Assembly: GCA_020696385.1 (NCBI GenBank)
Contig: JAEHCQ010000006.1
Coordinates: 1-64,000 of the forward strand
Direction: 5' to 3'
DNA from: Methanobacteriota archaeon
GTDB lineage: Archaea > Thermoplasmatota > Thermoplasmata > SG8-5 > JAGLSY01
Length of the DNA: 64,000 bases
A program made the translations under genes and the position numbers. Shown here piece after piece: positions 2,378 through 49,971 of this stretch (its first letter is position 1; each line of letters begins with the position of its first letter). Below the pieces are notes generated by a model. It was not told the origin of the DNA and did no database searches. It saw only the letters and a program-made list of their open reading frames with translations.

Positions 2378-2449
2378 AGGAGGGATTTGAATGTTTGAAC
2401 TCGATTCGAACATTCAAAATTCCGAAATGTAATGGAGGAATTAGAAATG
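2378..2449 (+). repeat. Intercistronic double-hairpin element copy A, with mini-[16 protein letters not shown] (2391-2432)
   Basis: TTTGAATGTT...AACATTCAAA hairpin followed by AATTCC-GAAA...GGA-GGAATT hairpin over the RBS; similar to copies at 3295, 35788, 38996, 39733 and 49896. Confidence 0.8.
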
Positions 2450-3301
2450 GAAATAAAGAAAATAGGAGTCATCGGAGCTGGCCAGATGGGTGCGGGTATA
2501 GCCCAGGTCGCTGCGATCGCAGGATATGAAGTTGTATTGAATGATATCAAACAGGAATTTGTGGATCGCGGAATGGCGACCATAAACAAGTCCATGGCAA
2601 AGGGTGTGGAGAAGGGCAAGATGGAGCAGTCTGTGATGGACGGCGCACTAACCCGAATAAAGACCACCCTGGATCTGAAGGATATGTCGGATGTCGACCT
2701 GGTCGTCGAGGCCATCATAGAGGATTTCGGACTGAAGAGTCAGATATTCAAAACATTGGATGATATCTGTCCACCACATGCCATACTCGCCAGCAATACA
2801 TCATCGATATCCATTACAAAGCTGGCAGCTTGTACAAGCCGCCCGGAGAAGTTCATCGGAATGCATTTCATGAATCCAGTTCCATTAATGAAGCTGGTCG
2901 AGGTCATTCGTGGTATCCTCACAGATGATGAGACTGCACAGGCAATTACCCAGGCAAGCGAGAAGATGGGCAAGATACCTGTGGAGTGCAATGATTACCC
3001 TGGCTTTGTGGCCAACCGTCTGCTTCTGCCAATGCTGAACGAGGCAATGTACTGTGTGATGGAAGGAGTTGGAGAGCCAGAGAACATAGACCAGATAATG
3101 AAGCTGGGAATGAACCACCCGATGGGACCACTGGCATTGGCCGATCTGATCGGTCTGGATACCTGCCTGCACATCATGGAAGTTCTGCATGAAGGTCTTG
3201 GCGATTCCAAATACAGACCATGCCCATTGCTCGTGAAGATGGTGGATGCTGGACTCATGGGAAGGAAATCCGGTCGCGGATTCTACGATTATTCGAGGTG
3301 A
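2447..3301 (+). CDS. hbd: 3-hydroxybutyryl-CoA dehydrogenase
   Basis: GAGQMG Rossmann motif, EAIIE, SNTSS, GMHFMNP, PMGP; GGAGG RBS before ATG 2447 (in-frame ATG also at 2432). Confidence 0.96.
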
Positions 3302-3365
3302 TTTGAATGCGAGAACAAAGTTATTGCATTGAAAATTCCGAAATACAATGGAGGAATTAGATATG
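3295..3365 (+). repeat. Intercistronic double-hairpin element copy B, with mini-ORF MREQSYCIENSEIQWRN* (3307-3360)
   Basis: TTGAATGCGAGAACAAAGTTATTGCATTGAA is 28/31 identical to 39744-39774; second hairpin nearly identical to copy A. Confidence 0.8.
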
Positions 3366-4193
3366 GCTGTTGAATATACAAGAGATGGAAATGTCGGTAT
3401 GATCAAGATGAACAATCCGCCAATGAACGTTCTTAACACGCAGGTTTTGCATGAGCTTTACCAGGCCATTCAAAAAATAGAGGCAGAGGAAGGATTGGCT
3501 GCTGTCATAATCACTGGAGAAGGAAGGGCATTTGTCGCAGGGGCTGACATCAGCGAGATGATGGACATGGACCCTGCAGCTGCCGCGGAATTTGCAGAAG
3601 CTGGACAGGGTGCGTTTGATCGAATCCAGGCATTGAAAATGCCTGTAATCGCGGCTGTCAATGGTTTCGCTCTTGGAGGCGGAACCGAACTGGCTATATG
3701 CTGTGACATCAGGATCGCATCCGAAGCCGCCAAAATGGGTCTGCCAGAGGTAGGATTGGGTGTCATTCCAGGATTCGGAGGAACTCAGAGACTTGCCCGT
3801 CTTATTGGACCGGGCAAGGCCAAGGAGCTTGTCTTCACTGGTGACATGATAAACGCCAAGACCGCCTGTGATATCGGGCTGGTCCAGGCAGTTGTGCCAG
3901 GTTTCAAGGTTGACGAGAATGGTGACAAGGTGCTCAATGAGAAGGGCAAACCAATTCAGGACAATGAGCCAGTTATAGCCGCGGCCAAGGAAATGGCTGC
4001 CAAGATAGCGGCCAAAGGCCCACTCGCAGTACAGGTTGCCAAGACCTCTATCGATACAGGTCTTGATCTGAGCCTCGCGGCTGGATTGAAGGTCGAAGCC
4101 AGTACCTTTGCCAAGCTCTTCGAGACAGAGGATCAGAAAGAAGGTATGAAAGCCTTTGTCGAGAAGAGGCCAGCTGATTTCAAGGAAAAATAG
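3363..4193 (+). CDS. crt: Enoyl-CoA hydratase (crotonase)
   Basis: AFVAGADI, NGFALGGGTEL, PEVGLGVIPGFGGTQRL; both catalytic Glu present. Confidence 0.95.
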   Translation: MAVEYTRDGNVGMIKMNNPPMNVLNTQVLHELYQAIQKIEAEEGLAAVIITGEGRAFVAGADISEMMDMDPAAAAEFAEAGQGAFDRIQALKMPVIAAVNGFALGGGTELAICCDIRIASEAAKMGLPEVGLGVIPGFGGTQRLARLIGPGKAKELVFTGDMINAKTACDIGLVQAVVPGFKVDENGDKVLNEKGKPIQDNEPVIAAAKEMAAKIAAKGPLAVQVAKTSIDTGLDLSLAAGLKVEASTFAKLFETEDQKEGMKAFVEKRPADFKEK

Positions 4194-4222
4194 ATAAGTC
4201 GGATGGGCCATAGGAGTTAATA

Positions 4223-4780
4223 ATGAGGATCGAGCCATCCGAGGAATATGTTACCAGCGTACTGGAAAAGTACAAGAGAAGCACCAGTGTGGATTTTACC
4301 ACTGGTGATCTGAAGTACGATGACGTGCCGATAATCTGGGCACGTGCGGAGCTTCTCTATCACATATACTCGGAACTGGAAAGCCTCATGTCTGAATCCG
4401 CACTGGCAATTCTCAAGCGGATCGGAAAACCCTATGGCTCTAATTTTTATAAAATGATGAAGGAGCAGGGGCAGGTGGAGAGGCTCCAGAATCAGGAAAA
4501 TATCTACAAATATCTTGTATCCGAGACGATGGCCATCGGCTGGGGTGAGGTGGCGATAGACACTGTGGGCGATCTCTTGATATTCACCTGCGAGAAAGGT
4601 CTCACGGTTGGCAAGTACCACAAGAGCAAAGGCAAGACCAGCAACTGGGCGATCGATTCCTATTTCCTCGGATACCTGGAAGGTTTCCTCACCGAGATGC
4701 ATGGGCGACCATACAAGGGAGAGGAAACAGAGTGTGTTGGCAAGGGCGATGATAGATGCACGATAAGATTGACTCCATAG
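4223..4780 (+). CDS. V4R (4-vinyl reductase-like) domain protein
   Basis: GWG motif and C-terminal EETECVGKGDDRC typical of V4R; last gene of the thl-hbd-crt run. Confidence 0.8.
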   Translation: MRIEPSEEYVTSVLEKYKRSTSVDFTTGDLKYDDVPIIWARAELLYHIYSELESLMSESALAILKRIGKPYGSNFYKMMKEQGQVERLQNQENIYKYLVSETMAIGWGEVAIDTVGDLLIFTCEKGLTVGKYHKSKGKTSNWAIDSYFLGYLEGFLTEMHGRPYKGEETECVGKGDDRCTIRLTP

Positions 4781-4871
4781 ACTCAGTCACCCCCTCTCTA
4801 ATACAAACCCCCGTACCAATTCGTTTATATATTACACAAAAGTCCGTACCAATAACCCTTTATAAACTGGA

Positions 4872-7655
4872 ATGATTCTTGATGTTATGGGTAATAGTGG
4901 AAGAATCATATCGGTATTATTGTGTTTTATTATGGTATTGTCATCCCTGGGGATCGGGACTGGCCAGACATATAATGGTAGCGAAGATATCACATACATC
5001 CTGCGGGTGGCGATGCAGGATGATGTCAAGACCCTGAACCCACTGACCGCGGGGGATGTGTGGACGTGGAATTTATTGTCATATCTTTATGAGGGACCAC
5101 TCAATTCAAATCCAGATACCGACGAGTTAATTCCGTACATTGCGGTTGGCTCTGCCAATGAAACTGCCAGTAATTCATCCATGAGCTGGGGTGATTGCAA
5201 TATCGGTAGTTTTGATTATTCTCCTATGGATACGTGGAACAATTCAGAAAGACCTGAAGCCACTATCTTTTATGATTTCACTGGTGTCACTTGGCATGAT
5301 GGTGAACAAATGGATATCAGAGATATCATGTTCTCATATCATGCACAATCGCAGCTGCCCGACTGGGTATCTAGTGTTAAATGCCTGATGGACAGGGGCG
5401 GAGAAGCTGGCACGAATCATACAGACACTCACTATCTGCATATTCAGAAGGTGTATGAGAGTGATGATGGCTTGCAGGCCGCTCTCAGATTCGAGCTTCA
5501 AGAACCATATGGTGACTTTTTCAGAAACACGCTGTCCGCCTTCCTTCTCCCCTATCATATATGGGGAAGCACCGAGTCAGGACAGCCATCGGACAATATG
5601 CTGATATGGTCTGACTCGGGTTACACAAAGGACAATCCAATGTCATGGGACTCCACAGCAGCTTTGGATTGGAACAATCCTAACCCTGTTGGCAATGGTG
5701 TCTTCAAGTTCAACTCATGGCTTGTGGGCCAGATATCCAAAATAGATACATTCAGAGACCATTTCCACAAATACGGCTGGAACCCTGAATATGATCCCGA
5801 TGGAATTGCAAAACAACCTATCATCAATGGCATCCAGTTCAAGATATACAAGACCGCGGAGCAGGCGGTCCTGGCTCTGAAAAATAATGATGTGGATTAT
5901 ATCGCATGGTCGATCCCACCTACATTTGTTCAGGAGATCGCGATGGATCCTGATTTTGGTGTGAAACAATCTGCAGAGGCGGGTTTCTTCTACATGGGAT
6001 ATAATATGCGTCCAGAAAGGAGATCATTCGGATACGATGATAATGGAATTGATGTCGGCAAGCCGCTGAGGCGGGCGATATCTCATTGTATCGATAAATC
6101 TACAATTGTTCAGAGATTGCTTCAGAACTTCGGCATACCTGGAGATGGCCCAGTAAGCTCCATAAGTCCTTGGTATAATGATTCACTTCCACAATATCCC
6201 TTTGACCCCGAGCGTGCGAAAGAGATCCTTATAGATGCTGGTTATAAATTAACAGATCCGTCCAAACTACCAGGGAATGGAAACTGGTGGTTGAATCCTG
6301 ATGGCTCGTCAATTGGAAATAGCAATGATGGAATGATCGAGATACTGACACCACAAGCGGATTATGATCCCATAAGACATCGTAGTGGGCTGATGATCGC
6401 CCAGCAGATGCGGGATATCGGTCTGTATGCCGAGCATATCGCCATGGACTTTGGCTCAATTGTCAATCATCTGGATCAGCGGGATTTCGATATGTACATC
6501 CTCGGTTGGAGGATCGGTAGCGATCCGTATGATTTCATGCATTCTTTCTTCCATTCCAGCAATATCGATGTCGGCCAGAATTATCCAGGATATCGAAATA
6601 TCACCCTTGATGGTATCCTTGAGCAGGCCAGGGAGACATCTGATGATGCATACAGGTTGGAGCTCATGAGGGAAGCTCAAGCAGCAATTGCTTATGACCT
6701 CCCATATGATGTCCTGTATTTCAGGACCAATATCGAGGTCTACCGCGCCGACAGATTCACTGGCTGGGTGGTGGGTTCTTCCGGTTCAATATACAATCAT
6801 CAATCAATTCTCAATATCAGACCACCTGCGAATCAATTCATCAATGCCAGGTTTGTGGATACTGACATGTCCGTTTATTCCGAAGGCGAGGTGGCTGTTG
6901 ATGTTCTTCTCACTGGCATAAAGAAGAATGCTGACGGCACGCTCACTCGCGCCCCACTTGAAGGCGCGATGGTGGAATTCTCTGTATCCAATGGAACTCT
7001 GGACATGTACGAATGTGTTTCTGATTCCAATGGCAAAGTGAGGTTGAAATACACTGCACCTTACATCGATCCGAACAATCATCTGGCCGACGATGGGCTC
7101 TCTGCGATGATCGAAATAAGCACGGCCAGTAAGGATAACTATGATAATGCGAGATCCCGGGTTCACGTGGTTCAGATATTCAAGACGGAAACACCCTTCC
7201 TGAACCTGGAGCTGGAGCTGGATCCAGATGTTATAGAGGGTGTTGATACGCAGGGTCAGGAAGGATTCGCGTATATCACGATCACGGCCAGGGATAATAA
7301 GGCATATCCGGTCGAGGGGGTTGCAATATCCTTCGAGACCATTCCAGAAGGCCCCGTGATCACATCCGAGAGCAATGCGACCGACAGCCAGGGGAAGATG
7401 GTCGCTAAACTATCCGCGAACATGCCCTTGTCCGAGGATGAGACCTTGCCCGTTGTGGTGGTTGCCAAAGCGACAAGAGCTGGCTATCAAAATGGTACAC
7501 AATCAATTTGGCTGGAAGTTGTTCATTATAATGGGCCTCCGCCCCCGCCCCCACCCCCATCGGATTATGGTCTGCTGGAGATATTCTTAATAGCGGGAAT
7601 AATTTCTGTAATTGGCATAGTGGCCTTCATAGCCATATACTGGAGTCGGCCATGA
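4872..7655 (+). CDS. ABC transporter family-5 (peptide/nickel-type) solute-binding protein with C-terminal Ig-like domains and membrane anchor
   Basis: Signal peptide; TLNPL, WHDG, PVGNGVFKF, LRRAISHCIDK motifs; SDSNGK/TDSQGK Big_1-like repeats; poly-Pro linker and TM helix. Start may be ATG 4887. Confidence 0.9.
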   Translation: MILDVMGNSGRIISVLLCFIMVLSSLGIGTGQTYNGSEDITYILRVAMQDDVKTLNPLTAGDVWTWNLLSYLYEGPLNSNPDTDELIPYIAVGSANETASNSSMSWGDCNIGSFDYSPMDTWNNSERPEATIFYDFTGVTWHDGEQMDIRDIMFSYHAQSQLPDWVSSVKCLMDRGGEAGTNHTDTHYLHIQKVYESDDGLQAALRFELQEPYGDFFRNTLSAFLLPYHIWGSTESGQPSDNMLIWSDSGYTKDNPMSWDSTAALDWNNPNPVGNGVFKFNSWLVGQISKIDTFRDHFHKYGWNPEYDPDGIAKQPIINGIQFKIYKTAEQAVLALKNNDVDYIAWSIPPTFVQEIAMDPDFGVKQSAEAGFFYMGYNMRPERRSFGYDDNGIDVGKPLRRAISHCIDKSTIVQRLLQNFGIPGDGPVSSISPWYNDSLPQYPFDPERAKEILIDAGYKLTDPSKLPGNGNWWLNPDGSSIGNSNDGMIEILTPQADYDPIRHRSGLMIAQQMRDIGLYAEHIAMDFGSIVNHLDQRDFDMYILGWRIGSDPYDFMHSFFHSSNIDVGQNYPGYRNITLDGILEQARETSDDAYRLELMREAQAAIAYDLPYDVLYFRTNIEVYRADRFTGWVVGSSGSIYNHQSILNIRPPANQFINARFVDTDMSVYSEGEVAVDVLLTGIKKNADGTLTRAPLEGAMVEFSVSNGTLDMYECVSDSNGKVRLKYTAPYIDPNNHLADDGLSAMIEISTASKDNYDNARSRVHVVQIFKTETPFLNLELELDPDVIEGVDTQGQEGFAYITITARDNKAYPVEGVAISFETIPEGPVITSESNATDSQGKMVAKLSANMPLSEDETLPVVVVAKATRAGYQNGTQSIWLEVVHYNGPPPPPPPPSDYGLLEIFLIAGIISVIGIVAFIAIYWSRP

Positions 7656-10435
7656 AGCTCAGTAAAACGATAATTCCATTTGGCATATGTGCCATGCTCA
7701 TTATCTCATCATTTGGAATGATGGCCAGCACTGGCCAGATAGATGACGACACATACATCCTGCGGGTGGCGATGCAGGATGACATCAAGACCCTGAACCC
7801 ACTGGTTGCGGGAGATGTCTGGACTTGGAATGTTATTGGATATCTGTATGAAGGACCACTCAATACAGACCCAGATACTGATGAGCTTATCCCCTACATT
7901 GCGGTTGGCTCTGCCAATCTATCCACAGATCAGAACAATATTGACTGGGATGATTGTACAATTGGTAATTTCGGATATTCTCCAAAGGAGGTCTGGAATG
8001 ATTCTGAAAAACAGGAGACCATCATCTTCTACGACTTTACCGATGTAAGGTGGCATGATGGAACTCAGATGGACATCCGGGATGTCATGTTTTCATACCA
8101 TATGCAGGCTCAATTACCCGACTGGCAGTCAGATGTCAGATGCCTGATGGACGAGGGCGGGGAGGGTGGCTCCAATTTCACAGATACTAATTATCTGCAC
8201 ATCCAGAAGGTCTATGAGAGCGAGGATGGGCTTCAGGCAGGTCTTCGATTCCAATTACAAACACCATTTGCAGCCTTTTTAAGGAACACTCTTTCATCTT
8301 CCCTCCTGCCATATCATATCTGGGGTACGACTGCCTCTGGCCAGGCACTCGACAACACTTTGATATGGCTGGATGATGGATACACTCCCAATCATGTATG
8401 GGCATGGGACTCAGCAATTGCTTTAGCCTGGGATAATCCCAACCCAGTTGGCAGTGGGCCTTTCATGTTCGAATCATGGAATGTGGGCGTTAACTCCAAG
8501 ATAGCCACATACAGAGATCATTTCTACAAATATGGCTGGAACCCGGAATATGACCCAGATGGGATTGCCAAACAGCCGACCATCGAGGCAATAGTATTCG
8601 AGATCTACAAGACTGCGGAACAAGCGGTCTTGGCTCTGAAGAACAATGATGTGGATTATATCGCATGGTCAATACCACCGACCTTCGTTCAGGAGATGAT
8701 GAACGAGCCAGACCTTGGTGTTATCCAGTCTGCTGAAAAAGGCTTCTTTTATCTGGGCTATAATATGAGGCCATCGAGGCGATCATTCGGTTATGATGAG
8801 AATGGAACTGATATTGGAAAACCACTTCGCCGAGCCATTGCTCATTGTATTGATAAGCAGACCATTGTACAAAGATTACTGCAGAACTTTGGAATTCCTG
8901 GAAATGGCCCCATCTCTGAGATAAGTGAATGGTATAATAGCTCCATTCCAAAATATGCCTTTGATCCACAGGAGGGGAAGCAGATACTGGCTGATGCTGG
9001 ATATATGCTGGAGGATGGAAGCACAGGCCAGGAGGCCTTTGAAAAAGCTGGGGTTGGTAACTGGTGGCTTAACCCAGATGGCTCACCAATTGGTAATAGC
9101 GAAGGCGGTAAGATCAGGATACTTACACCACCAGCAGATTATGATCCCATACATAGTCCGAGCAGTGCGAGCTATATGATGGCCAGGCAAATGCAGGATA
9201 TTGGGCTCTATGCGGAATCCGTTGCGATGGATTTTGGCACAATAACTGCTATGATCCAGGACAGGGAGTTCGACATATATATTCAAGGCTGGCGTATCGG
9301 CAGTGATCCAACTGATTCTCTATATGCTTTCTTCCACTCTGATAATGCAGATGCCAGCGATAACTTTCCAGGCTATTCCAATGAAAGCTTTGATGAATTA
9401 ATTGATCTGGCTCGTGAAACTGATGACGAGGATATCAGAATGAAATGCATACTGGATGCCCAGTCATCAATTGCCTATGACCTTCCTTATGATGTTCTGT
9501 ATTTTAGAACAAACATCGAAGCCTACAGGTCTGACAGGTTCACTGGATGGGAGACTGGCCCATGCGGTTCCATCTATAATTTGAGGTCTATACAGAACTT
9601 AAGACCTCCATCTGGTAAATGGTTGAATACCAAGTTCGTGAACATGGACTCGGCAGCCCAGTCTAACTCCACTATCGATGTGGAGGTTTTGGTGACCTGC
9701 CTTGAGAAGAATTCAGATGGTTCAATTTCCAGAGGGCCAGCCGAGAACGCATATGTGGAGTTGTCAACCAGTAATGGAACTCTTTCCGAATTATCTGGGT
9801 ATACAGACTCCGGTGGCATGTTGAGGATCACCTACACGGCTCCTTATGTGCCACCTACCAATGATCATGTGAGGAATGGAACTCCTGTGATTATCGAGAT
9901 AAAAAGCGCGGAATTATTTGATAATGATACTGCGGCCAGTAAGGTCACTTTACTCACTGTATATCCTGAATCTGTGAACTTTCTAAATGTGCAAATGGAG
10001 GTTGACCCGGATGTTATATTCTCACAAAGTGAGGGCGGAGAGCCATCCTATGCCACCTTGGAGGTGCTAGTCACTGATCAGAATGACAATCCCGTATCTG
10101 GAGCCGAATATTTCATTCAATTATACCCCGAGGGGCCAAATATCTCATCAGAGGTCCAGTATACGGATGATGATGGAATGGCCTATTTCACCATATCCTC
10201 GGTGGGTTCTGATGATAGTAGATCACACACCATCAGTGCAATTGTCTTCAAGAATGGGTATAAGAACGGCACCCAGTCAATAACCCTGGATATTCTGAAG
10301 CTGGAGGTGATGTCCGACCCCCTAGGGCCTTCTAGCGATCTAAGTGATTACGTTGTTCCAGCTGTGATCTTGATGGGCTGTGGAGTCTTGGCAGGTGTAG
10401 CGATCGTCTCGGTCAGAAGAAAGAAAAAACTCTAA
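7652..10435 (+). CDS. Paralogous family-5 solute-binding protein with Ig-like domains and membrane anchor
   Basis: Same architecture, with long identical stretches to the upstream gene (e.g. YKTAEQAVLALKNNDVDYIAWSIPPTFVQE); ATGA overlap. Confidence 0.9.
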   Translation: MKLSKTIIPFGICAMLIISSFGMMASTGQIDDDTYILRVAMQDDIKTLNPLVAGDVWTWNVIGYLYEGPLNTDPDTDELIPYIAVGSANLSTDQNNIDWDDCTIGNFGYSPKEVWNDSEKQETIIFYDFTDVRWHDGTQMDIRDVMFSYHMQAQLPDWQSDVRCLMDEGGEGGSNFTDTNYLHIQKVYESEDGLQAGLRFQLQTPFAAFLRNTLSSSLLPYHIWGTTASGQALDNTLIWLDDGYTPNHVWAWDSAIALAWDNPNPVGSGPFMFESWNVGVNSKIATYRDHFYKYGWNPEYDPDGIAKQPTIEAIVFEIYKTAEQAVLALKNNDVDYIAWSIPPTFVQEMMNEPDLGVIQSAEKGFFYLGYNMRPSRRSFGYDENGTDIGKPLRRAIAHCIDKQTIVQRLLQNFGIPGNGPISEISEWYNSSIPKYAFDPQEGKQILADAGYMLEDGSTGQEAFEKAGVGNWWLNPDGSPIGNSEGGKIRILTPPADYDPIHSPSSASYMMARQMQDIGLYAESVAMDFGTITAMIQDREFDIYIQGWRIGSDPTDSLYAFFHSDNADASDNFPGYSNESFDELIDLARETDDEDIRMKCILDAQSSIAYDLPYDVLYFRTNIEAYRSDRFTGWETGPCGSIYNLRSIQNLRPPSGKWLNTKFVNMDSAAQSNSTIDVEVLVTCLEKNSDGSISRGPAENAYVELSTSNGTLSELSGYTDSGGMLRITYTAPYVPPTNDHVRNGTPVIIEIKSAELFDNDTAASKVTLLTVYPESVNFLNVQMEVDPDVIFSQSEGGEPSYATLEVLVTDQNDNPVSGAEYFIQLYPEGPNISSEVQYTDDDGMAYFTISSVGSDDSRSHTISAIVFKNGYKNGTQSITLDILKLEVMSDPLGPSSDLSDYVVPAVILMGCGVLAGVAIVSVRRKKKL

Positions 10436-33544: not shown

Positions 33545-35326
33545 ATGACTATGGTAGTTTCAGATATAGAAAGTGTCAAAAATGCCCAAAGTATGTCTAA
33601 GTATAAGGTCGGTATTTTTGATTTTGCAAGCTGTGAAGGATGTGAACTGCAGATAGCCAATCTTGAGGAGGATATCCTCGAGCTTTTGGATACGGTGGAG
33701 GTAGTATCATTTCGTGAGGTCATGAAGGAGCATTCCGATGACTACGATATTGCTTTCATTGAGGGTTCGATAAACAGGCCAGTTGATGAGAAAAGGCTGA
33801 AGGAGATCCGGGCAAATGCCAAGATCCTCATCGCCCTTGGTGATTGTGCCACAACTGGTTGTGTTAATAAACTGAGGAACCAATGGCCAGATGCGGAAAA
33901 TCTCAAAGAGGTCTATGCGGATGCAGACATTGCGAATAATGAGTATTTCGATGTCTTCCCGACAAAGAAGCTCAATGAGGTCGTGGATGTTGATTTCTAT
34001 ATCCGTGGATGTCCAGTCAGGAAAGAACAGGTCCTGTACTACATAAGGCGTCTTACCACGATGGCTCCAAGGAAGAACCTGGATCTCCGATTCGGTGTCA
34101 CCGCCAGGGAGCTTGAATCAGATACAAGGTCCATCATCCAGTACGATCCTCAGAAGTGCATACTGTGCAGGCATTGCGATGTTGTTTGCAATGATATCCT
34201 GGACATACACGCTATTGGATTGACCAATAAGGGAAATGAGTCCATCATATCCACGCCTTTCAATAAGGGTCTGGATGATAACAAATGTATCTCATGCGGA
34301 CAGTGTTTGGTCAACTGCCCGGTTGGTGCATTCTCCGAGCATTCCGATGTGGAGAAGGCTATAGGATTGCTTGACGATCCAAACAATTTCGTTGTGTTCG
34401 TTATAGATCTAACAGCTGCTGCAACAGCCATGGAAGTCCTGCCAACAGACAGAGAGGACTTTGGCGAGGCTTTGGGAAGTCTCATAGCGTCATTGAAATC
34501 ACTGGGAGCTGACAGAGTTGTGGATTTCACACATTTCAATTATCTTTCACTGGCAGCACAGGGAACTTATGTTAGCGAGAATGACGACATGATTTTCACA
34601 TCATGGTGTCCAAGTGCCAATTCGTACATCCGAAAATTCCATCCTGAGTTCAAAAAGAATCTGCAGAAGGTGTCATCACCCGAGCAGATTATGTTGGATG
34701 TCCTGGGTGAGAGATATACAAAGGGAGAGAAGGATCTGAAGATAATCCTTCTGTCACCATGTATCGTCCACAAGGGTAATTCAAAGATCGATGCGGTCTT
34801 GACTGCCAGGGAACTTCCAAGACTTCTCAAGCAGAAGGGCGTGGACATTGACTTCTATGAGCCTTCGGAAGGTGTGTTCGATTGCGAACTTGGCTTGTCC
34901 AGTGTCTTTGTCAAGGGTGCCAGTAGCGACTATGCTTACTCATTGGCAATAATACAGACGGCTTACATGAGAAAGTTCAATAATCTCGATGCCCGGCTGG
35001 CTGTGACCACTCTTGAGGATTATGTTCATGAAATGGCCTTCGACAGTGAAGAAGGCTTCTTCAATGCTCTCATAATCGAGGATCTGGCGAAGGCGAGTAA
35101 GTATCTGACAAAGGACATTGCCAAGAGATACAATGTGGTGGAACTGTACCCATGTTTCCACGGTTGTCTAACAGGTGGCGGAACCGTACCAACTACTTCG
35201 ATAGATGTTATTGACCAGCGTAGGGACCATCTGAAGAATTTCAAGGGCGAGTCCAAGGGGCCTGTCTGGTTCTCAAAGCAGATAATAGAGGCTTATGACA
35301 AGCAGATAAAAGGAGGTGATGAGTAA
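33545..35326 (+). CDS. Fusion of [NiFe]-hydrogenase small-subunit N-domain, 2[4Fe-4S] and [FeFe]-hydrogenase-like H-domain (group F-type hybrid subunit)
   Basis: FDFASCEGC, EGS, GDCA, GCP; CILCRHC...C and CISCGQC...CP; TSWCP, SPCIVHK and ELYPCFHGCLTGGG. Likely start ATG 33593. Confidence 0.9.
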   Translation: MTMVVSDIESVKNAQSMSKYKVGIFDFASCEGCELQIANLEEDILELLDTVEVVSFREVMKEHSDDYDIAFIEGSINRPVDEKRLKEIRANAKILIALGDCATTGCVNKLRNQWPDAENLKEVYADADIANNEYFDVFPTKKLNEVVDVDFYIRGCPVRKEQVLYYIRRLTTMAPRKNLDLRFGVTARELESDTRSIIQYDPQKCILCRHCDVVCNDILDIHAIGLTNKGNESIISTPFNKGLDDNKCISCGQCLVNCPVGAFSEHSDVEKAIGLLDDPNNFVVFVIDLTAAATAMEVLPTDREDFGEALGSLIASLKSLGADRVVDFTHFNYLSLAAQGTYVSENDDMIFTSWCPSANSYIRKFHPEFKKNLQKVSSPEQIMLDVLGERYTKGEKDLKIILLSPCIVHKGNSKIDAVLTARELPRLLKQKGVDIDFYEPSEGVFDCELGLSSVFVKGASSDYAYSLAIIQTAYMRKFNNLDARLAVTTLEDYVHEMAFDSEEGFFNALIIEDLAKASKYLTKDIAKRYNVVELYPCFHGCLTGGGTVPTTSIDVIDQRRDHLKNFKGESKGPVWFSKQIIEAYDKQIKGGDE

Positions 35327-35805
35327 TGGAAGCTAAAGATAAATTCATTATAGATACTATACTACATACCTATTCAAATATAGATGACCCTCAACTTGTG
35401 ATATTGCAGAATATTCAGGAAATTCTCGGATATGTCGGAGAGGAATATCTCACATATGTTTCCGAGAACAGTGAATATTCACTTACCGAACTTTATGGTG
35501 TTGTATCCTTCTATCCTCAATTTAGATTTGACCCACCTGGAAAACACACCATCAAGGTCTGCAGTGGTACAGCATGCCATGTTAGAGGTGGCTCTGGCAT
35601 CGCACAGGAATTGGAAGATATTCTGGAGATCAAACCTGGCGGAACCACAAAAGATGGATTGTTCTCACTAGAGTCCGTCAGATGTCTGGGATGCTGTGGT
35701 CTTTCACCTGTCATCATGATCGATGAAGAGACATATGGCCGTGTGAAGAAAGGTGGCCTTCAAAAGATACTTGAATCTTACAAAACCGAGGAGGTTGCTG
35801 AATGA
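35326..35805 (+). CDS. HydC/NuoE-like [2Fe-2S] subunit
   Basis: GVVSFY, CSGTAC, CLGCC; TAATG overlap and GGAGGTGA RBS. Confidence 0.93.
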   Translation: MEAKDKFIIDTILHTYSNIDDPQLVILQNIQEILGYVGEEYLTYVSENSEYSLTELYGVVSFYPQFRFDPPGKHTIKVCSGTACHVRGGSGIAQELEDILEIKPGGTTKDGLFSLESVRCLGCCGLSPVIMIDEETYGRVKKGGLQKILESYKTEEVAE

Positions 35806-35861
35806 GAGAGCATAGCGATTTCATTCTGGAGCCCGTAACGCAGAGGAGGGGTCTACAATGA
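35788..35861 (+). repeat. Intercistronic double-hairpin element copy C, with mini-ORF MREHSDFILEPVTQRRGLQ* (35802-35861)
   Basis: GAATGA-GA-GAGCATAGCGA-TT-TCATTC then AGCCC-GTAA...GGA-GGGGTCT; ATGA overlaps at both ends. Confidence 0.75.
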
Positions 35862-38800: not shown

Positions 38801-39013
38801 GAAAAGATGAACAATACCAACTATTCCAATGTCGAGCCAGACAATGCCGAGCCAATGCAGAGACAGGGCGTTAAGGAACTCAATGCTGATGATAGGACAT
38901 GCGGCTTCGAGGAAGTTGTCATGTGTATGGATTCAGAATGTGCAAAGAAAGAGGCATCCAGGTGTTTGAGGTGTGATCTCAGTGCGGACACAGATGGAGG
39001 TGATGTTGAATGA
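35858..39013 (+). CDS. HydB/NuoF diaphorase fused to a GltD/NfnB-like FAD-NADP(H) module
   Basis: N-terminal TRX-like [2Fe-2S], GRGGAGFP, NADEGDPGAYMD, FVCGEE, GGPSG, CGKCTPC...C; then PCQNTCP, CGRVC..PCE..C, GGGPSG, GGGNVAID, YRR, EASRCLRC. Confidence 0.93.
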   Translation: MKISKIVHLRDMAQRGKESMDNGTPQVIFGLATCGIAAGGMPLKEYAELYLDENDVHADIVSVGCIGMCHAEPLVDIKLPGKPRVTYSDMDIEKLKKILDEHLVGEEPVKDLAMCQLTDEISECEHGVIAETDIYDGIPRYQDLPFFAKQIRVALRNCGIVVPEDIEEYIARGGYRAAYRSLFELTPEEIIGEVKTSGIRGRGGAGFPTGLKWEFCHKAPGDVKYVICNADEGDPGAYMDRAVLEGDPHSVIEGMIIGGYAMGASDGYIYIRAEYPLAIEKLKKAIASAEEHGILGDRVFGMDYSFRIHIREGAGVFVCGEETALINSIEGKRGEPRPRPPFPAVSGLWGKPTNINNVETWANIAMILQKGGKWFSTMGTEKSTGTKVFSLVGKVNRAGLIEVPMGIPMKDIIYEIGGGIMDGRKFKAVQTGGPSGGCIPEEHLDIPVDYDNLKTLGSIVGSGGMVVLDEDTCMVDVARYFLTFTAEESCGKCTPCRIGTRRLLEILEKICHGEGVMEDLEVLTSLSEQVSASALCALGGTAPNPIITTMKYFMNEYVDHIENKICDASVCAAMFKSPCQNTCPAGTNVPGYIQLITEGRYAEAYDVNREANPFPSICGRVCEHPCEGRCQRAQLDEPIAIRELKRYASDEAFKAGVGKISTLDDVDKTIAIVGGGPSGLSAAYFLRRMGYKPTIYEAEEKMGGWVRYGIPKYRLPHEIIDKEIQDIIDLGVVAKTNTSVGKDVTMETLLNDNDAVYLAIGAQKDTKLGLEGEDLPGVLPGLQLLKEMNSGKSVDLGQSILVIGGGNVAIDVARTAVRMGTKVTICYRREEDDMPAYDEEIEHCREEGVEYHFLVAPEKLIVEGGKVVGAVFRKNVMGDFTKWGRRSPVATDETVEIRADRVVNAIGQQLDTDFAGGMNIVGDSRWIPVEGTGSSAWFPKIFAGGDAVTGPASVIDVVADGKRAAKNIDLFLGGNDRLAELEKMNNTNYSNVEPDNAEPMQRQGVKELNADDRTCGFEEVVMCMDSECAKKEASRCLRCDLSADTDGGDVE

Positions 39014-39069
39014 GCGACTATAAGGAGCACATTCAAAAGCCCGTAATGATAATGGAGGGATTCTGAATG
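38996..39069 (+). repeat. Intercistronic double-hairpin element copy D, with mini-ORF MSDYKEHIQKPVMIMEGF* (39010-39066)
   Basis: TTGAATG-AGC-GACTATAAGGA-GCA-CATTCAA then AGCCC-GTAA...GGA-GGGATT; the TGA abuts the next ATG. Confidence 0.8.
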
Positions 39070-39747
39070 GCAACGACTTCATTCAAAATAAACATAGTGA
39101 TTGATGGAAAGGACTATGCTGGAGAGCCGAACCAGACAGTACTGGATGTAGCAAGGGCGAACTCGGTTGATATACCAACCCTTTGCTTCAATCCACTGTT
39201 CCCCGACCACAGGATCGGGTCTTGCAGACTGTGTCTGGTCGAGGTGAAAGCAGGGGGCAGACCCGGTCTGCAACCAAGTTGTACGATGCCAGTTTCTTCT
39301 GGATTATCTGTATCCACTATCAGCGATGCGGTGTATCAGGCAAGGAGGACTGTTGTAGAACTTCTGCTATCCGAGCATGTTCAGAAATGTCGCGATTGTC
39401 CAGTCAGTGGCGAGTGTAACTTTGCCAAGCTGTGCAGGGATTATGATATTAATGGAGTACCCGTATGTGCCGAATGCCCGAATCAGGGAGAAGGCTGTCT
39501 TTTGACAAGAGGAGAGCTTTGCCTGGGACCATTGACATATGCCAACTGTAATGCTTTCTGCACCCGAAAAGGGTACAGGTGCGAGGGTTGTCATTCGATA
39601 ATGGCCAATGAGGATATTCTCAGGTTCGGATTGAAGGCATACAAGGATGCTGGCTTCACAAAAGAAGAGATACTTGTAGCGGCCAAGGTCTTCTCCTATG
39701 ATTCGATGGAGATGCTTGAGCGTGTGATGACCGAGGAGGGGTTTTGA
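39067..39747 (+). CDS. Fusion of HydA/NuoG N-terminal [2Fe-2S] and His-[4Fe-4S] domain with the [NiFe] small-subunit C-terminal Fe-S domain
   Basis: IPTLC...GSCRLCLVE...C; H.xxC..C.....C; then PVCAEC...C...CLGP....C...C......CEGC, matching the C-terminal half of 45590-46366. Confidence 0.9.
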   Translation: MATTSFKINIVIDGKDYAGEPNQTVLDVARANSVDIPTLCFNPLFPDHRIGSCRLCLVEVKAGGRPGLQPSCTMPVSSGLSVSTISDAVYQARRTVVELLLSEHVQKCRDCPVSGECNFAKLCRDYDINGVPVCAECPNQGEGCLLTRGELCLGPLTYANCNAFCTRKGYRCEGCHSIMANEDILRFGLKAYKDAGFTKEEILVAAKVFSYDSMEMLERVMTEEGF

Positions 39748-39808
39748 ATGCGAGAACAAAGTGATTGTATTCAAGAACCCGGAATGCCAAAGGAGGGATT
39801 CTAAGATG
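39733..39808 (+). repeat. Intercistronic double-hairpin element copy E, with mini-ORF MREQSDCIQEPGMPKEGF* (39748-39804)
   Basis: TTTTGAATGC-GA-GAACAAAGTGA-TT-GTATTCAAGA then GAACCC-GGAA...GGA-GGGATTC; the mini-ORF ends EGF* like the upstream gene. Confidence 0.8.
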
Positions 39809-41553: not shown

Positions 41554-41580
41554 AGGAAGACCAAGCGTAAATAGAATAAT

Positions 41581-41612
41581 GGTCGGATGAGTAATACTTC
41601 ACTCATCCGATC
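41581..41612. terminator. Hairpin between convergent genes, including the regulator's 3' end
   Basis: GGTCGGATGAGT-AATACTTC-ACTCATCCGATC. Confidence 0.55.
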
Positions 41613-43657: not shown

Positions 43658-43676
43658 TAGAAACGGAGGAATAAGA

Positions 43677-45593
43677 ATGAAAATAATATCAAAACAAGAT
43701 TTCGATGCCTTTATAAATGCCCTGATCCAGGATGAATCTTTGGATGTTGAGGGTGTGAAAGCCAAAGGAGATAAGTTCGTATTTGGACCGTTAGATACAG
43801 CAACAGAGCTGCGCCTGGACTATGATGTGACCATACTTCCACCCAAGAAGTATTTCCTTCCTCAGTACGAGACCATGATGCATTTCGATATATCAACTGG
43901 GAAGGCCACGGCTCCAGCAATGGACACGAAGAAGGTCATTGTGGGAGTTCATCCATATGACCTGATAGCGATCCAGCAGATGGACAAATACTTCTTTGAC
44001 ACCAATGTTGATGACATATATCTGCAGAAGAGGAAGAACTCTCTTCTGATAGGTGTAATGCCCGCGAAGGCCTCTGAGAAGGCCTTCTATGGGGATCTGA
44101 TGAAAAATGCAGGTACTCCAGAATTGCACTTCGATCTGATGGTGACTGACCTGGGTGTGCTATATGCTGTCCTTCCAGGAACTCCGGAAGGGGCACAGCT
44201 CCTTTCGAGAGCGACATCCCGGGATGCACAGCCCCAGGAGATAGAGGCTGCCAAGAACAAGCGGCAGGAAGCGATAGACAGGGCAACAAGAGGTTTGAAG
44301 GTTGGTCCTAAGGCATGGCATTCTCTTCTATCGAACAACTACATGAGCTCAATATGGAAGGAGATGGCAGATCAGTGTCTGGCATGCGGTTCCTGTACTC
44401 TCGTTTGTCCAACATGTTTCTGCTATGATGTCAATGACGAGGTCGGATTGGACCTCAATACCGGTGTCAGGACCAGAACCTGGGATGGCTGTCTTCTTAG
44501 AGACTTCACAAAGGTCGCACCTGGCGAGATATTCAGGGAGGATATCGTCGAGAGATATCGCCACAGGATAAACAGGAAGGGCAAGTACCTCCCCGAATCA
44601 ATGGGCTTCGTTGCCTGTGTGGGATGTGGGAGATGCTCAAGCCAGTGTGTTCCTGATATTGCTGATCCGGTCAATTTGATCAATAAATTGGCTGAGGCAA
44701 CTATGGACACGATACCCGACACGAATATGGGCCATGTGCCAGAGAAATCTGACCTTGGAATAATTGCCAGTGATTCATTGTACATACCAAGGACCGCGAC
44801 CATAAGACGGATGATGAAACTCACCAAGACAGAGACTTTCTTCGAGATCGGTCTAGATGATGGCCAGCCTCTTGGACATGTGCCTGGTCAGTTTGTCGAG
44901 GTATCCATATACGGTGTGGGTGAAGCACCAATTTCAGTATCTTCTCCTCCCGGAGGGAACACATTCCAATTGATAGTAAGGAATGTGGGGGATCTGACCA
45001 ATAAGCTCCATTCATTGAGCGAAGGAGACAAGATTGGGATCAGAGGTCCATTCGGTACTGGCTTTGACACGGAAGGTATGAGGGGAAAGAACATTTTGTT
45101 CATTGGTGGTGGATTGGGCATAGTTCCAATGCGCTCCCTTATCAAGTATGTGCTGAACAACCGTGCAGACTATGGCAAGGTCATGATCCTCTATGGTTGC
45201 AAGGATCCCAGTGAGCTTCTCTTCAAGGATGAGATATCTCAATGGGAGAATACACCTGGCGTCGAAATGCATAGGACAGTGGATACCTGTGCAGAGGGCG
45301 AAAATTGGGATGGGCAGGTAGGTGTCATAACCACCATCATGCCTATGGTGACCTTCGACCCATTGAATACCATCGCTGTGGTAGTTGGACCACCGATCAT
45401 GTACAGGTTCGTGAACCGCGATCTGCTTAACATGGGTATGCCTGAGGAGAATATCATTGTCTCTCTGGAAAGGCGTATGAAATGCGGCGTGGGCAAGTGC
45501 GGTCACTGCCAGATAAATGGAATATATGTCTGTAAAGAGGGGCCTGTATTCAATTATAAAGACATTAAAGATGAACCGGAGGCGTTTTCATGA
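43677..45593 (+). CDS. Fused group 3b hydrogenase beta (2[4Fe-4S]) and gamma (FAD/NAD(P), [2Fe-2S]) subunit
   Basis: PPKKYF, CLACGSC..VCPTCFC, CVGCGRC...C; then PGQF, GEAPIS, RGPFG, GGGLG, ERRMKCGVGKCGHC...C.EGPVF. Confidence 0.93.
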   Translation: MKIISKQDFDAFINALIQDESLDVEGVKAKGDKFVFGPLDTATELRLDYDVTILPPKKYFLPQYETMMHFDISTGKATAPAMDTKKVIVGVHPYDLIAIQQMDKYFFDTNVDDIYLQKRKNSLLIGVMPAKASEKAFYGDLMKNAGTPELHFDLMVTDLGVLYAVLPGTPEGAQLLSRATSRDAQPQEIEAAKNKRQEAIDRATRGLKVGPKAWHSLLSNNYMSSIWKEMADQCLACGSCTLVCPTCFCYDVNDEVGLDLNTGVRTRTWDGCLLRDFTKVAPGEIFREDIVERYRHRINRKGKYLPESMGFVACVGCGRCSSQCVPDIADPVNLINKLAEATMDTIPDTNMGHVPEKSDLGIIASDSLYIPRTATIRRMMKLTKTETFFEIGLDDGQPLGHVPGQFVEVSIYGVGEAPISVSSPPGGNTFQLIVRNVGDLTNKLHSLSEGDKIGIRGPFGTGFDTEGMRGKNILFIGGGLGIVPMRSLIKYVLNNRADYGKVMILYGCKDPSELLFKDEISQWENTPGVEMHRTVDTCAEGENWDGQVGVITTIMPMVTFDPLNTIAVVVGPPIMYRFVNRDLLNMGMPEENIIVSLERRMKCGVGKCGHCQINGIYVCKEGPVFNYKDIKDEPEAFS

Positions 45594-46366: not shown

Positions 46367-46367
46367 A

Positions 46368-47666: not shown

Positions 47667-47700
47667 ATCCCCCAAAAATAAAAGGGATGGAAATAACAAT

Positions 47701-47736
47701 GGAAGAGGCAGTTTAATATGCCTCTTCCCCCTTTCA
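47701..47736 (+). terminator. Hairpin after the hydrogenase large-subunit gene
   Basis: GGAAGAGGCA-GTTTAATA-TGCCTCTTCC followed by CCCTTTC. Confidence 0.55.
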
Positions 47737-47744
47737 TATTTTAC

Positions 47745-48194: not shown

Positions 48195-48256
48195 TATTAT
48201 TATATATTTTATTTCATAATATATATTTTGAAGTAGGCTGGCAATAAATATTATGG

Positions 48257-48307
48257 CTATGTTCGCTCATTCCCTTTCCCATACTTGTACGCTATAGCGC
48301 ATACGCC
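48257..48307 (-). pseudogene. Diverged duplicate of the hypD C-terminus (GVCAIAYKYGKGNERT*)
   Basis: Compare the hypD end GGCSIAYKYGKRGN*; shared residues often use different codons. Confidence 0.75.
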
Positions 48308-48342
48308 CTATCGCTCGTTTTCAACTCGCTTACGGGCTATGC

Positions 48343-49428
48343 TCAATTGCCTCTCTTACCGTACTTGTAGGCAATTGAGCACCCTCCCTCGAAAGACACC
48401 ATACAAGGTCCAACCGGGCTCCCTGGCTTGCATGCCTTTCCAAAGAGTGGACAATCCTGAGGTTCCATGATCCCTCTCAGGATCTCCCCGCACTTGCACC
48501 CAGCTGGCTCCGGAAAATCCATGTCCCATATGGGGCTGAGCAGGTCTTCGTATTTCTTTCTGGAATTGAATGCCTCGAACTTGTCAGATATCTCAAGGCC
48601 AGTTCCCGGAAGAACTGGGAATCCGCGCCATTTCACATCACTTTCTACCAGTGTCTTTGCCATAGCTTCGATAGCTTTGGGATTTCCCTCTGGCTTGACA
48701 ACGCGGAAGTATTCATTTTCAACTTCCGCTCTTCCCTCTTTTATCTGTTGGGTGAGCATGAAGATACTCATCAGAAGGTCCAGGGGCTCGAAGCCAGCTA
48801 TCACCTGGGGGATATTGTATTCTGTAGAAAGGAATTGGTACGGCTCCTCGCCGATAATGGCGCTGACATGGCCTGGTTCGATAAGGCCATGGAGCTTGAC
48901 TTCGCCCATATTCACAAGGGCGCGCAATGCCTTGGGAACTGTCCTGTGGCATGATAGAATTGAAAAGTTATCTGGAGGCTGGCTAAGTAATGCGAGGGAA
49001 GTCGCGGGTGTTGTTGTCTCGAAGCCGATGCCCATGAACATGAATTCTTTATTTGGATCATCTTTGGCCATTCTGAGCGCGTCCATGATGGAATAGACGA
49101 TCCGAACATCTGCGCCATCACCCTTTGCATGAGCCAGTGATCTCTCCGCGCCGGGGACTGTGAGCATGTCCCCGAAGACCGTCACCACGATGCCCGAATC
49201 AGCAAGCTTGATCGACTCCTCTATCTCATTGGGTGTTGTTACGCATACCGGGCATCCGGGACCCTGTAAAATTCTAATGCCAGTTGATTCCAGCATGGCA
49301 TCCAGGCCATTACGGACTAGTGTGTCCTGGTGTGTTCCGCATACATGCATGAACTTCGCTTCCACACCAGACTCTTTGATCTTGTCCAGTACTCTTTTCG
49401 CCATGTCCCTGTTCTGAAAGTCCGCCAT
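48343..49428 (-). CDS. hypD: Hydrogenase maturation protein HypD
   Basis: MHVCGTH, GPGCPVC, GFETT, PGHVS, CMVS.EG.C. Confidence 0.97.
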   Translation of the reverse strand: MADFQNRDMAKRVLDKIKESGVEAKFMHVCGTHQDTLVRNGLDAMLESTGIRILQGPGCPVCVTTPNEIEESIKLADSGIVVTVFGDMLTVPGAERSLAHAKGDGADVRIVYSIMDALRMAKDDPNKEFMFMGIGFETTTPATSLALLSQPPDNFSILSCHRTVPKALRALVNMGEVKLHGLIEPGHVSAIIGEEPYQFLSTEYNIPQVIAGFEPLDLLMSIFMLTQQIKEGRAEVENEYFRVVKPEGNPKAIEAMAKTLVESDVKWRGFPVLPGTGLEISDKFEAFNSRKKYEDLLSPIWDMDFPEPAGCKCGEILRGIMEPQDCPLFGKACKPGSPVGPCMVSFEGGCSIAYKYGKRGN

Positions 49429-49429
49429 A

Positions 49430-49834
49430 TTAGGATTCCTCCTTTTTCCCATCATCTTCGTCATCCACTATGAGCCTGACATTTCGTACCGTGCACTGTC
49501 TTCCATTCAGAATATCAACAGCTCCATTGCATTTTGGGCACATGATGATGGGTGAGGCATAATGGTACTCGTCATCAGGAGGATCCATAGGGCCGGTATA
49601 TCCACACTCTTTGCACCTGACATTTGCCACCATGTTGGCGATCAATAGCTGAGCTTTGGCCAGCAGTGTGTTTTTCTTGAGTGCATCAAAGGCAAATATA
49701 AGCTGGGCGGAGTTCAGAAAGGCCAGGTCGCCTACCTCCAAATAGACTTCTTCTATTCGGATGACCTTCTCATGCTTGCCAGCTTCCTCCAGAACTGCCT
49801 TAACAATACTTTCCACAACCGCGAACTCATGCAT
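49430..49834 (-). CDS. hypA: Hydrogenase nickel insertion protein HypA
   Basis: MHE N-terminus, CKEC and CPKC zinc sites. Confidence 0.95.
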   Translation of the reverse strand: MHEFAVVESIVKAVLEEAGKHEKVIRIEEVYLEVGDLAFLNSAQLIFAFDALKKNTLLAKAQLLIANMVANVRCKECGYTGPMDPPDDEYHYASPIIMCPKCNGAVDILNGRQCTVRNVRLIVDDEDDGKKEES

Positions 49835-49895
49835 TTTATTTCCTCTTTATAATATAATCATTTTTATAATTCTAATATGTATATATGTGGCCAGT

Positions 49896-49971
49896 TCATT
49901 CATTATTTAATCTCTCAATTCTTTCGAGCTTTTGAATGTTCGAATACGATTCGCACATTCAAGTCTTCTCC
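49896..49971 (-). repeat. Intercistronic element copy F after hypC, with mini-ORF MCESYSNIQKLERIERLNNE* (49958-49896)
   Basis: Minus strand TTGAATGTGCGAATCGTATTCGAACATTCAAAA shares the first 8 and last 16 nt with copy A; the hypC TGA is directly followed by ATG. Confidence 0.75.

Follow-up and report, generated by a model that had tools for sequence, protein, structure and literature searches.

Introduction

Palindromic repeats of small size are commonly regarded as extragenic clutter, or else as terminators and stabilisers. The repeat considered here, whose place is among the few nucleotides at which a gene is most sensitive, was noticed in six copies (A to F) in a stretch of 64,000 nucleotides from a Methanobacteriota archaeon (positions 1 to 64,000, forward strand, of contig JAEHCQ010000006.1, assembly GCA_020696385.1; hereafter the window). 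Judged by its sequence, and with the nearest candidates compared by description, it makes up a new family of small archaeal insertion elements of palindromic build, and it is probably a non-autonomous mobile palindromic repeat, akin to the palindrome-associated transposable elements (PATEs) and to REP (repetitive extragenic palindromic) sequences, which would work as a translational coupling cassette. No account of the family was found in the open literature, including the accessible part of PMC4153887, in a search from which supplements were excluded.

In build, the closest known system is that of the haloarchaeal PATEs, which derive from insertion sequences (IS) of the IS200/IS605 group and include 52-bp "terminal-only" forms (PMC3119063). 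Like PATEs, the present repeat is archaeal, measures about 50-60 bp, has two near-terminal palindromes and is too short for a transposase; its insertions are strain- or species-specific, may adjoin a targeting word of 4-6 nt and can be nested within one another, and terminal inverted repeats are missing, the insert at copy C (one large plus one small hairpin) having no matching termini. Unlike PATEs, it is not accompanied by any resident IS605-type element with related palindromes in the five genomes of its family; moreover, the available part of that account does not describe PATEs on start codons, with a Shine-Dalgarno (SD) tract and an ATG, or as keeping a reading frame, and the AATGA that flanks copy C could be a target duplication, which PATEs, in the same account, do not make. 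A MITE (miniature inverted-repeat transposable element) derived from a DDE transposon, which would have terminal inverted repeats bounded by target-site duplications, was considered separately and rejected, since the insert at copy C ends without such repeats.

In position and content, the closest known repeats are REP2 of Neisseria and the IR repeats of Borrelia, again compared by description: these too are dispersed immediately upstream of open reading frames (ORFs) and carry a ribosome-binding site (RBS), an ATG and two stem-loops without terminal inverted repeats, and REP2 too shows translated open frames (PMC3184786). REP2 differs in being 120-150 bp long and bacterial, and in including a promoter, and its description in PMC3184786 includes neither two SD/ATG pairs nor a short ORF ending on the gene start; many copies of the archaeal repeat are internal to operons, where a promoter is not expected.

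Distribution and Architecture of the Repeat

A covariance model built from the six window copies was used to scan the whole 2.28-Mb Thermoplasmatota draft genome (G000; 50 contigs, 94% complete), in which 39 loci of the repeat were found; in the window, which is part of contig C47, the model matches exactly the six copies A to F. A preliminary description, made from the letters of the window alone, had placed these six copies at gene junctions with the layout given below and had proposed such a scan; alignment and covariance model agree with it, and further copies, with strong covariation, occur throughout the genome and in its relatives. Among 41 genomes scanned with the model, the other four genomes of the same family have 29-66 matches each, one sister family has 2-5 matches in each of 4 of its 13 genomes, and the other 17 families have none, a picture that a scan of the whole order (22 genomes) repeats. 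Rfam yields no match in the window at the gathering score and, with E values up to 1, none on the elements, and no longer parent or vehicle was seen with a degenerate hairpin-1 pattern, which retrieved 0 viral contigs and 1 short metagenome contig. The family is described here as lineage-specific and, within the explanation that we consider, with fair though incomplete confidence, the best one as a whole, as made of very small non-autonomous insertion elements, with a unit of about 56 nt and no enzyme-coding capacity.

The window copies align over about 74 nt. Read from 5' to 3', they consist of a GGAGG-like tract (SD1), a spacer of 5-8 nt, an ATG (ATG1) within TTGAATG and a hairpin closed by CATTCAA (hairpin 1), followed by a smaller hairpin (hairpin 2) whose 3' arm has its beginning within a second GGAGG tract (SD2), a short spacer and the ATG of the real gene. 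The basic unit of about 56 nt ranges from 54 to 60 nt, and hairpin 1 takes up 30 nt of it, with arms that read TTGAATG...CATTCAA in most copies. Both hairpins are recovered by RNAalifold from the six copies, and the folds of single sequences agree with them (z-scores -1.1 to -5.5). Over 96 distinct members and 17 pairs, 95.7% of the cells are standard-paired, a share that drops to 20-41% once the 3' partners are moved along by 1-3 columns, and double changes are present at 16 of the 17 pairs; fitting the alignment to the model is a bias towards the structure, and the margin is large all the same. Across the helices, G.U and U.G fill 66 cells and A.C and C.A fill 15, an excess which indicates that the fold belongs to the sense strand.

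The loop of hairpin 2 is conserved and reads GAAATGAAATGGA. A loop form composed of GA, 2 bp, a triloop, 2 bp and GA, already pointed out in some window copies, recurs in 45 of 78 family units, and a Watson-Crick GA/TC takes its place in 20 of the 78; on these counts the GA form is a stable helix variant and not a conserved motif. In a kink-turn (K-turn), tandem sheared G.A pairs lie next to a 3-nt bulge. A K-turn, or L7Ae-binding motif, was rejected for the present form, in which GA/GA makes a symmetric 2x2 internal loop with no bulge and is open to the Watson-Crick replacement just mentioned. Also rejected was a toggle between SD1 and SD2 by way of the 5' arm of hairpin 2, seen in the minimum free energy (MFE) folds of copies A and E, since the arm of a copy is no more complementary to that copy's SD1 region than to SD1 regions permuted among copies; it does not stand as a specific feature.

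The build is modular: units may be nested or in tandem, and several loci have four hairpins, the inner pair of which matches the model on the opposite strand. Inspection also bears out that the window copies are mosaic, B and E being identical at 28 of 31 positions of hairpin 1, A and F having the same hairpin 1, and A and B the same hairpin 2. In contig C44 of G000 (208779-208943, - strand) lies a larger composite, in which three or more large hairpins are traversed by an ORF of 55 codons and no long ORF follows downstream.

Occupied and Empty Initiation Sites

The element occupies translation initiation sites, at a word of the (T)GAATG(A) type which is normally a start codon or a stop/start overlap. 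In G000, 36 of the 39 loci run up to the start codon of an ORF of 90 aa or more on the same strand, and the orientation of the element is always that of the downstream gene. At about half of the loci the stop codon of an upstream gene falls within the TGAATG(A) word or next to it (TGA-ATG, ATGA, TAATG or GAGGTGA), and the remaining half are found in leaders with no closely preceding gene, so that the confinement to gene junctions seen in the window holds for about half of the family and not for the rest. The word TGAATG occurs about 2,100 times in the genome, from which it follows that position is filtered, either by the mechanism or by selection.

Comparison with relatives shows that many of these sites exist in an empty state, also between congeners; the preliminary description had suggested that empty sites be sought in orthologous operons. 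Thirty-three sites of the congener G002, those among the matches listed of its 43, were projected onto G000 through flanks that are 80-95% identical; 30 could be resolved, and 20 of them are empty and 10 filled in G000. Four of the filled sites differ between the two genomes as two versus four hairpins, and one has a different hairpin type. As to the window, no alignable relative has an element at the sites of copies A, C, D and F, which are empty in G001, G002 and G004 for A (L097, L098, L099/L101), in L057, L059 and L061 for C, in L057 and L061 for D, and in G001, G002 and G003 for F (L104, L105, L106/L108). The site of copy B holds a four-hairpin composite in G001 (L098) and is empty in G002 (L097), and that of copy E is filled in one congener only (L057), with a different hairpin-1 type, and empty in six more distant relatives (L058-L063). 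L057 and the G002 loci L065/L066 are the same sequences and do not count as independent observations.

Without the element, such a site is an ordinary initiation region made up of SD, spacer and ATG, and stop/start overlaps are frequent. The clearest case is copy C, where the filled allele has exactly 56 nt more (35806-35861) between identical flanks: it is a clean insertion at CTGAATGA, the empty allele of L057 reading GAGGAGGTTGCTGAATGAAAATAAGC and the insert itself ending in CAATGA, and the original SD/ATG consequently stays on the left, the element supplying a new SD/ATG on the right. AATGA stands on both sides of this insert, and could be a 5-nt duplication or else a target word together with a similar element end; the flanks of the other pairs have diverged. 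The empty counterpart of copy F reads ...AAAGAATGAAC, in which GAATGA is the stop-codon context of the upstream gene and not a start, and this suggests that the word is recognised rather than the start site. Two empty target sites are present in the window itself, at 35310-35328 (+ strand; GGAGGTGATGAGTAATGG, a TAATG stop/start overlap) and at 45578-45593 (+ strand; GGAGGCGTTTTCATGA, an ATGA stop/start overlap), and both hold a copy in G002 (L066, 155 nt versus 98 nt, and L081, 156 nt versus 95 nt, respectively). A decayed remnant of the element was observed upstream of a gene in contig C46 (112091-112181); in a congener (L032) the remnant is followed downstream by a complete copy.

The occupied genes are diverse and mostly of the housekeeping kind: DnaK, the thermosome, ribosomal proteins S15, L31e, L3 and L10e, RNase P p29, transketolase, isocitrate/isopropylmalate dehydrogenase, a carboxyltransferase, desulfoferrodoxin and peptidases, in addition to the two operons of the window (thiolase, dehydrogenase and hydratase; NuoE-, NuoF/GltD- and NuoG-like genes followed by a NiFe large subunit). 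Genes of the first kind, from DnaK to RNase P p29, together with the central metabolic enzymes, would suit a cis-regulatory RNA leader, the hairpins of which would bind a protein or an RNase that co-regulates or stabilises housekeeping mRNAs, and which would have spread because of the control it confers; so would the strong strand-specific covariation, the conserved hairpin-2 loop, the fact that several leader copies (L080, L089, L092, L087 and L072) are common to congeners, and the precedent of Neisseria REP2, a two-stem-loop repeat with RBS and ATG that is tied to a regulon (PMC3184786). Such a leader is nevertheless unlikely, given that occupancy differs at 20 of 30 sites between two species of one genus (among the matches listed), that one and the same junction, as that of copy E, can hold different hairpin types, that neither the hairpin-1 loop nor its tandem G.A is conserved (GA/GA in 45/78 and GA/TC in 20/78 units), that the functions of the genes are heterogeneous, and that the frame-specific depletion of stop codons reported in the following section is left unexplained. 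For similar reasons, namely the quick turnover of occupancy and the heterogeneity of the genes served, a device setting the stoichiometry of subunits, which was one of the two interpretations first offered, is not needed; its mechanistic core, according to which the next RBS becomes accessible through ribosomes that translate the mini-ORF, is retained in the explanation preferred here.

The Mini-ORF and Its Reading Frame

All six window copies open an ORF of 13-20 codons, as had been reported. For the family as a whole, mini-ORFs were counted from model-anchored positions in the 62 units followed by an ORF of 60 aa or more, and in 34 of these the distance from ATG1 to the gene ATG is 56 nt. 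The mini-ORF is intact, that is, it has a start codon, an open frame and a stop ending between -6 and +8 of the gene start, in 28/62 units; 12/62 have no start codon at the ATG1 position, 13/62 stop early (some of these rows being inner units of composites), and in 9/62 the frame reads on past the gene start. Of the 28 intact units, 14 have their stop in an ATGA overlap, 6 have it at -2, and 3 have it immediately before the ATG. The usual length is about 19 codons, and six four-hairpin composites keep a frame of 34-36 codons from SD1/ATG1 which ends between -2 and +4 of the start.

The frame was tested by shuffling residues among copies, each column and each base pair being kept (1000 shuffles, 78 units). 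Stops in frame 0 are found in 19/78 units against 40.3 +/- 3.7 in the shuffles, none of the 1000 being as low, and stops in frames 1 and 2 are as frequent as expected (50 versus 53.8 and 51 versus 45.7, respectively); since the relatedness of copies affects all three frames alike, frames 1 and 2 serve as controls. Integrity depends, in addition, on position: when a tight junction is defined as one with ATG1 within 16 nt of the stop of the upstream gene, the mini-ORF is intact in 19 of 24 tight-junction units and in 4 of 28 elsewhere (odds ratio 22.8, Fisher p 3.5e-6). By eye, two of the tight cases without a start (L075 and L086) have the ATG shifted by two bases and the frame open, and several of the "early stop" rows in the non-tight class are inner units of intact composites. 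Both results speak in favour of selection on the frame: the constraint on the mini-ORF is specific to that frame and is strongest where operon junctions are tight.

The same results bear on the possibility that the repeat acts purely at the level of DNA, like the REP sequences and bacterial interspersed mosaic elements (BIMEs) that go with REP-associated tyrosine transposases (RAYTs), its palindromes being kept for some DNA transaction and the mini-ORF being an accident of the consensus. The likeness is real, in that both consist of short imperfect palindromes forming mosaic, alternating clusters and lineage-specific families, with a single-copy Y1 transposase gene in the genome (PMC2817692, PMC3733652), such a gene being present here in three of the five genomes; palindromes alternate in the composites, which contain antisense model matches, as in BIMEs (PMC2817692). 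In contrast to REP/BIME, the repeat has no GTAG or CGTC head, its Y1 gene is not flanked by a copy, the copies number tens and not hundreds, and they are fixed in orientation to the downstream gene, at whose start they lie, instead of following genes. A role confined to DNA is quite improbable in view of a stop depletion restricted to frame 0, of an ORF integrity that tracks tight junctions, of the 66 to 15 preference for G.U over A.C on the sense strand, and of an orientation that is invariably that of the gene, to be added to the missing GTAG/CGTC head and to the Y1 gene without a flanking element.

It might also be supposed that the mini-ORFs encode a family of functional micropeptides, as their recurring open frames with starts resembling M-R/S-E-x-S-D-C-I-Q would invite one to do. 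This is extremely improbable: the conserved residues fall on the arms of the hairpins, the peptides vary freely in the loops and between hairpin types, their lengths run from 13 to 36 residues, and 12/62 units have no start codon and 13/62 stop early.

Three copies have their mini-ORF joined in frame to the gene itself, one in G000 (C33:92967), where a GcvP-like gene follows, and two in G002 (L084 and L093). The palindromic elements of Rickettsia and other repeats of this sort (PMC3184786) likewise keep an open frame and can join a protein, as do these three N-terminal fusions, with the difference that those repeats insert inside coding regions and the present ones usually form a separate mini-cistron ending at the gene start. 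At the GcvP-like gene (C33, 92967-93100) no stop separates mini-ORF and gene, and conserved N-terminal residues are encoded upstream of the first internal ATG; the element may here supply the start of the protein.

Proposed Translational Coupling and Mobility

According to the explanation preferred here, ribosomes would start at the old ATG, or would come from the upstream gene whose stop overlaps ATG1, and would translate the ORF of about 19 codons (34-36 codons in composites), unwinding both hairpins as they go. Termination would take place on the new ATG or a few nucleotides from it (ATGA, TGA-ATG, TAG-AT-ATG), and the gene would then be translated by reinitiation and by access to SD2, with independent initiation at SD2 as an addition. 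The cassette would thereby be nearly neutral at its landing site, which would account for its survival at housekeeping start codons and inside operons. The proposed steps match the two accepted models of translational coupling, as well as the spacing range given for archaea and bacteria, in both of which coupling at such distances is established (PMC12548453, PMC6728339). A 16S rRNA, looked for in order to read the anti-SD, was not found in G000.

A comparable arrangement has been engineered in the synthetic bicistronic design (BCD), in which an efficiently initiated short leader cistron contains the second SD and ends abutting the gene start, and in which the helicase activity of the translating ribosome frees initiation from local structure (10.1101/2023.02.09.527918, PMC5995908). 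The corresponding layout (SD1 and a short ORF, SD2 inside it, a stop near the gene start) is present in 28/62 units, in 19/24 at tight junctions and in the six composites. BCDs, unlike the repeat, are engineered, are not mobile and have no conserved hairpins, and the likeness is one of working and not of family.

The built-in translational bridge, which is well supported at the sequence level, would be the unusual feature of the repeat, and the signs of design for translation are to be seen in the frame-specific avoidance of stops, in the stop placed on the new start and in the concentration of intact copies at operon junctions. If ribosomes do use it in this way, the repeat would be a natural counterpart of the engineered BCD, a ready-made archaeal part for context-independent expression and, from the point of view of the element, an example of a selfish sequence that lowers its own cost through translational coupling. 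It has also been considered that such a mobile, natural BCD cassette might pair its own CATTCA(A) with TGAATG, insert as single-stranded DNA and be kept by positive selection, its leader cistron freeing initiation from local mRNA structure and handing ribosomes across operon junctions, and its copies accumulating at highly expressed genes and at the junctions of subunit genes; this stronger version is rather unlikely.

For the movement of the coupling cassette two equally open routes are plausible. The first is peel-and-paste transposition of single strands, as with IS200/IS605 (PATE) elements, beside a short target word; the second is copying between initiation regions, guided by microhomology of the SD...ATG repeats that resemble each other on the two sides. 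A link with an HUH nuclease, suggested in the preliminary description, was tested and is not established: a single IS200-type tnpA (Y1_Tnp) is present in each of G000, G001 and G002 and was not found in G003 and G004, and the gene has neither a flanking element nor similar hairpins nor synteny. In G000 the Y1 transposase gene lies in contig C50 (2010-2357; 1456-1887 of L096, - strand) and encodes 143 aa, in an arrangement that differs between congeners; segments of about 270 bp are repeated on one side of it, 702-966 and 1189-1452 of L096 both matching 2029-2307 of L095.

Several observations weigh against a mobile coupling cassette, or at least against some part of it. With filters off, no element match was found around the Y1 genes (the best within 1.5 kb has E 0.6), no similar hairpins or inverted repeats were found at the Y1 gene, which is not syntenic, and TnpB (PF07282, PF01385) stays under the cut-off in all five genomes; these are drafts, 74-94% complete, so that a multi-copy IS may be unassembled. 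Within one genome, the core identity between copies has a median of 62% and reaches 87-89% at best, and with no near-identical copies there is no sign of a very recent burst. A clean insertion boundary is seen only at copy C; at B, at D and at several G002 sites the left spacer differs between filled and empty alleles, and the element may accordingly carry a left arm of its own or spread by recombination. By the -6 to +8 criterion, 34/62 units have no intact mini-ORF, which implies that the ORF is not required for expression of the gene. Lastly, the average age of copies at tight junctions may be lower than that of leader copies, given that the latter are more often common to several species, and this would inflate the association of integrity with junctions.

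On the other side stand the filled and empty orthologous sites, the clean insertion at copy C, the old SD/ATG retained and the new one added, and the constraint on the frame. On these grounds the first of the two original interpretations, that of a tiny non-autonomous mobile element with stop/RBS/start junctions as its target, tolerated there on account of the coupling signal that it duplicates, is upheld as the probable one.

The Six Copies of the Window and Their Surroundings

Copy A (2377-2449, + strand; model E 5e-16, MFE -19.1, z -3.4) lies between the thiolase and 3-hydroxyacyl-CoA dehydrogenase genes, identified by Pfam, and consists of SD1 GGAGGG (2379-2384), ATG1 (2391-2393), hairpin 1 (2387-2417), hairpin 2 (2418-2442), SD2 GGAGG (2434-2438) and the gene ATG (2447-2449). 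Its mini-ORF (2391-2432, + strand; 13 codons and TAA) ends just 5' of SD2 and 14 nt before the true start, since the orthologues in three relatives start at the codon equivalent to 2447; the ATG at 2432 belongs to the conserved AATGGAGG of the element, 5' of SD2. The stop is similarly placed just 5' of SD2 in L083, L069, L032 and L077. Copy B (3293-3365, + strand; model E 2.5e-16) separates the dehydrogenase from the enoyl-CoA hydratase gene, with the dehydrogenase stop TGA (3299-3301) inside SD1 GAGGTGA, ATG1 at 3307-3309, hairpin 1 at 3303-3333, hairpin 2 at 3334-3358, SD2 at 3350-3354 and the gene ATG at 3363-3365; its mini-ORF (3307-3360, + strand) has 17 codons and a TAG that ends 2 nt before the gene ATG.

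Three further copies follow one another in the operon of Nuo-like genes, annotated by Pfam. Copy C (35788-35861, + strand) stands between the NuoE-like gene, whose stop TGA (35803-35805) overlaps ATG1 (35802-35804), and the NuoF/GltD-like gene (ATG 35858-35860), with hairpin 1 at 35798-35828 and hairpin 2 at about 35829-35853; the mini-ORF (35802-35861, + strand; 19 codons) has a stop TGA that overlaps the gene ATG as ATGA. Copy D (38996-39069, + strand) lies between the NuoF/GltD-like gene and a 2Fe-2S NuoG-like gene (ATG 39067-39069), the upstream stop TGA (39011-39013) overlapping ATG1 (39010-39012), with hairpin 1 at 39006-39036, hairpin 2 at 39037-39062 and SD2 at 39054-39059, and its mini-ORF (39010-39066, + strand; 18 codons and TGA) stops directly before the gene ATG. 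Copy E (39733-39808, + strand; MFE -26.2, z -5.5) connects the NuoG-like gene (stop TGA 39745-39747) with the gene for the NiFe hydrogenase large subunit (ATG 39806-39808) and has ATG1 at 39748-39750, hairpin 1 at 39744-39774, hairpin 2 at 39775-39801 and SD2 at 39792-39797; the stop of its mini-ORF (39748-39804, + strand; 18 codons and TAA) ends 1 nt before the gene ATG.

Copy F (49896-49973, - strand) comes after a short gene whose stop TGA (49961-49959) is part of TTGAATG, about 65 nt upstream of hypA; ATG1 is at 49958-49956, hairpin 1 at 49962-49932, and the 20-codon mini-ORF ends at 49896 with no gene start adjoining, so that this copy, as already stated in the preliminary description, does not couple. 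Five copies had there been given a stop overlapping the next ATG or lying within 2 nt of it; this is correct for B, C, D and E and not for A, in which the ATG at 2432 is not the start of the gene.

For both the dehydrogenase (2432) and the hydratase (3348), the start of the longest ORF is the ATG of the conserved AATGGAGG, 15 nt upstream of the start used in orthologues; automatic annotation is likely to mis-call starts such as these, and the element also yields false short ORFs. Within the coding region of the dehydrogenase, at 3052-3136, a match to the C/D-box snoR35 that stays below the threshold (23.3 bits, with the gathering score at 40; E 0.024) is probably due to chance. Two tandem ORFs of 927 aa each lie on the same strand at 4872-10435 (4872-7655 and 7652-10435), overlapping by 4 nt. 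The operon that contains copies C, D and E is headed by a protein of 593 aa (33545-35326) with an Oxidored_q6 domain of the NiFe small-subunit/Nuo 20-kDa type, 4Fe-4S motifs and a C-terminal domain of the Fe-only-hydrogenase large subunit.

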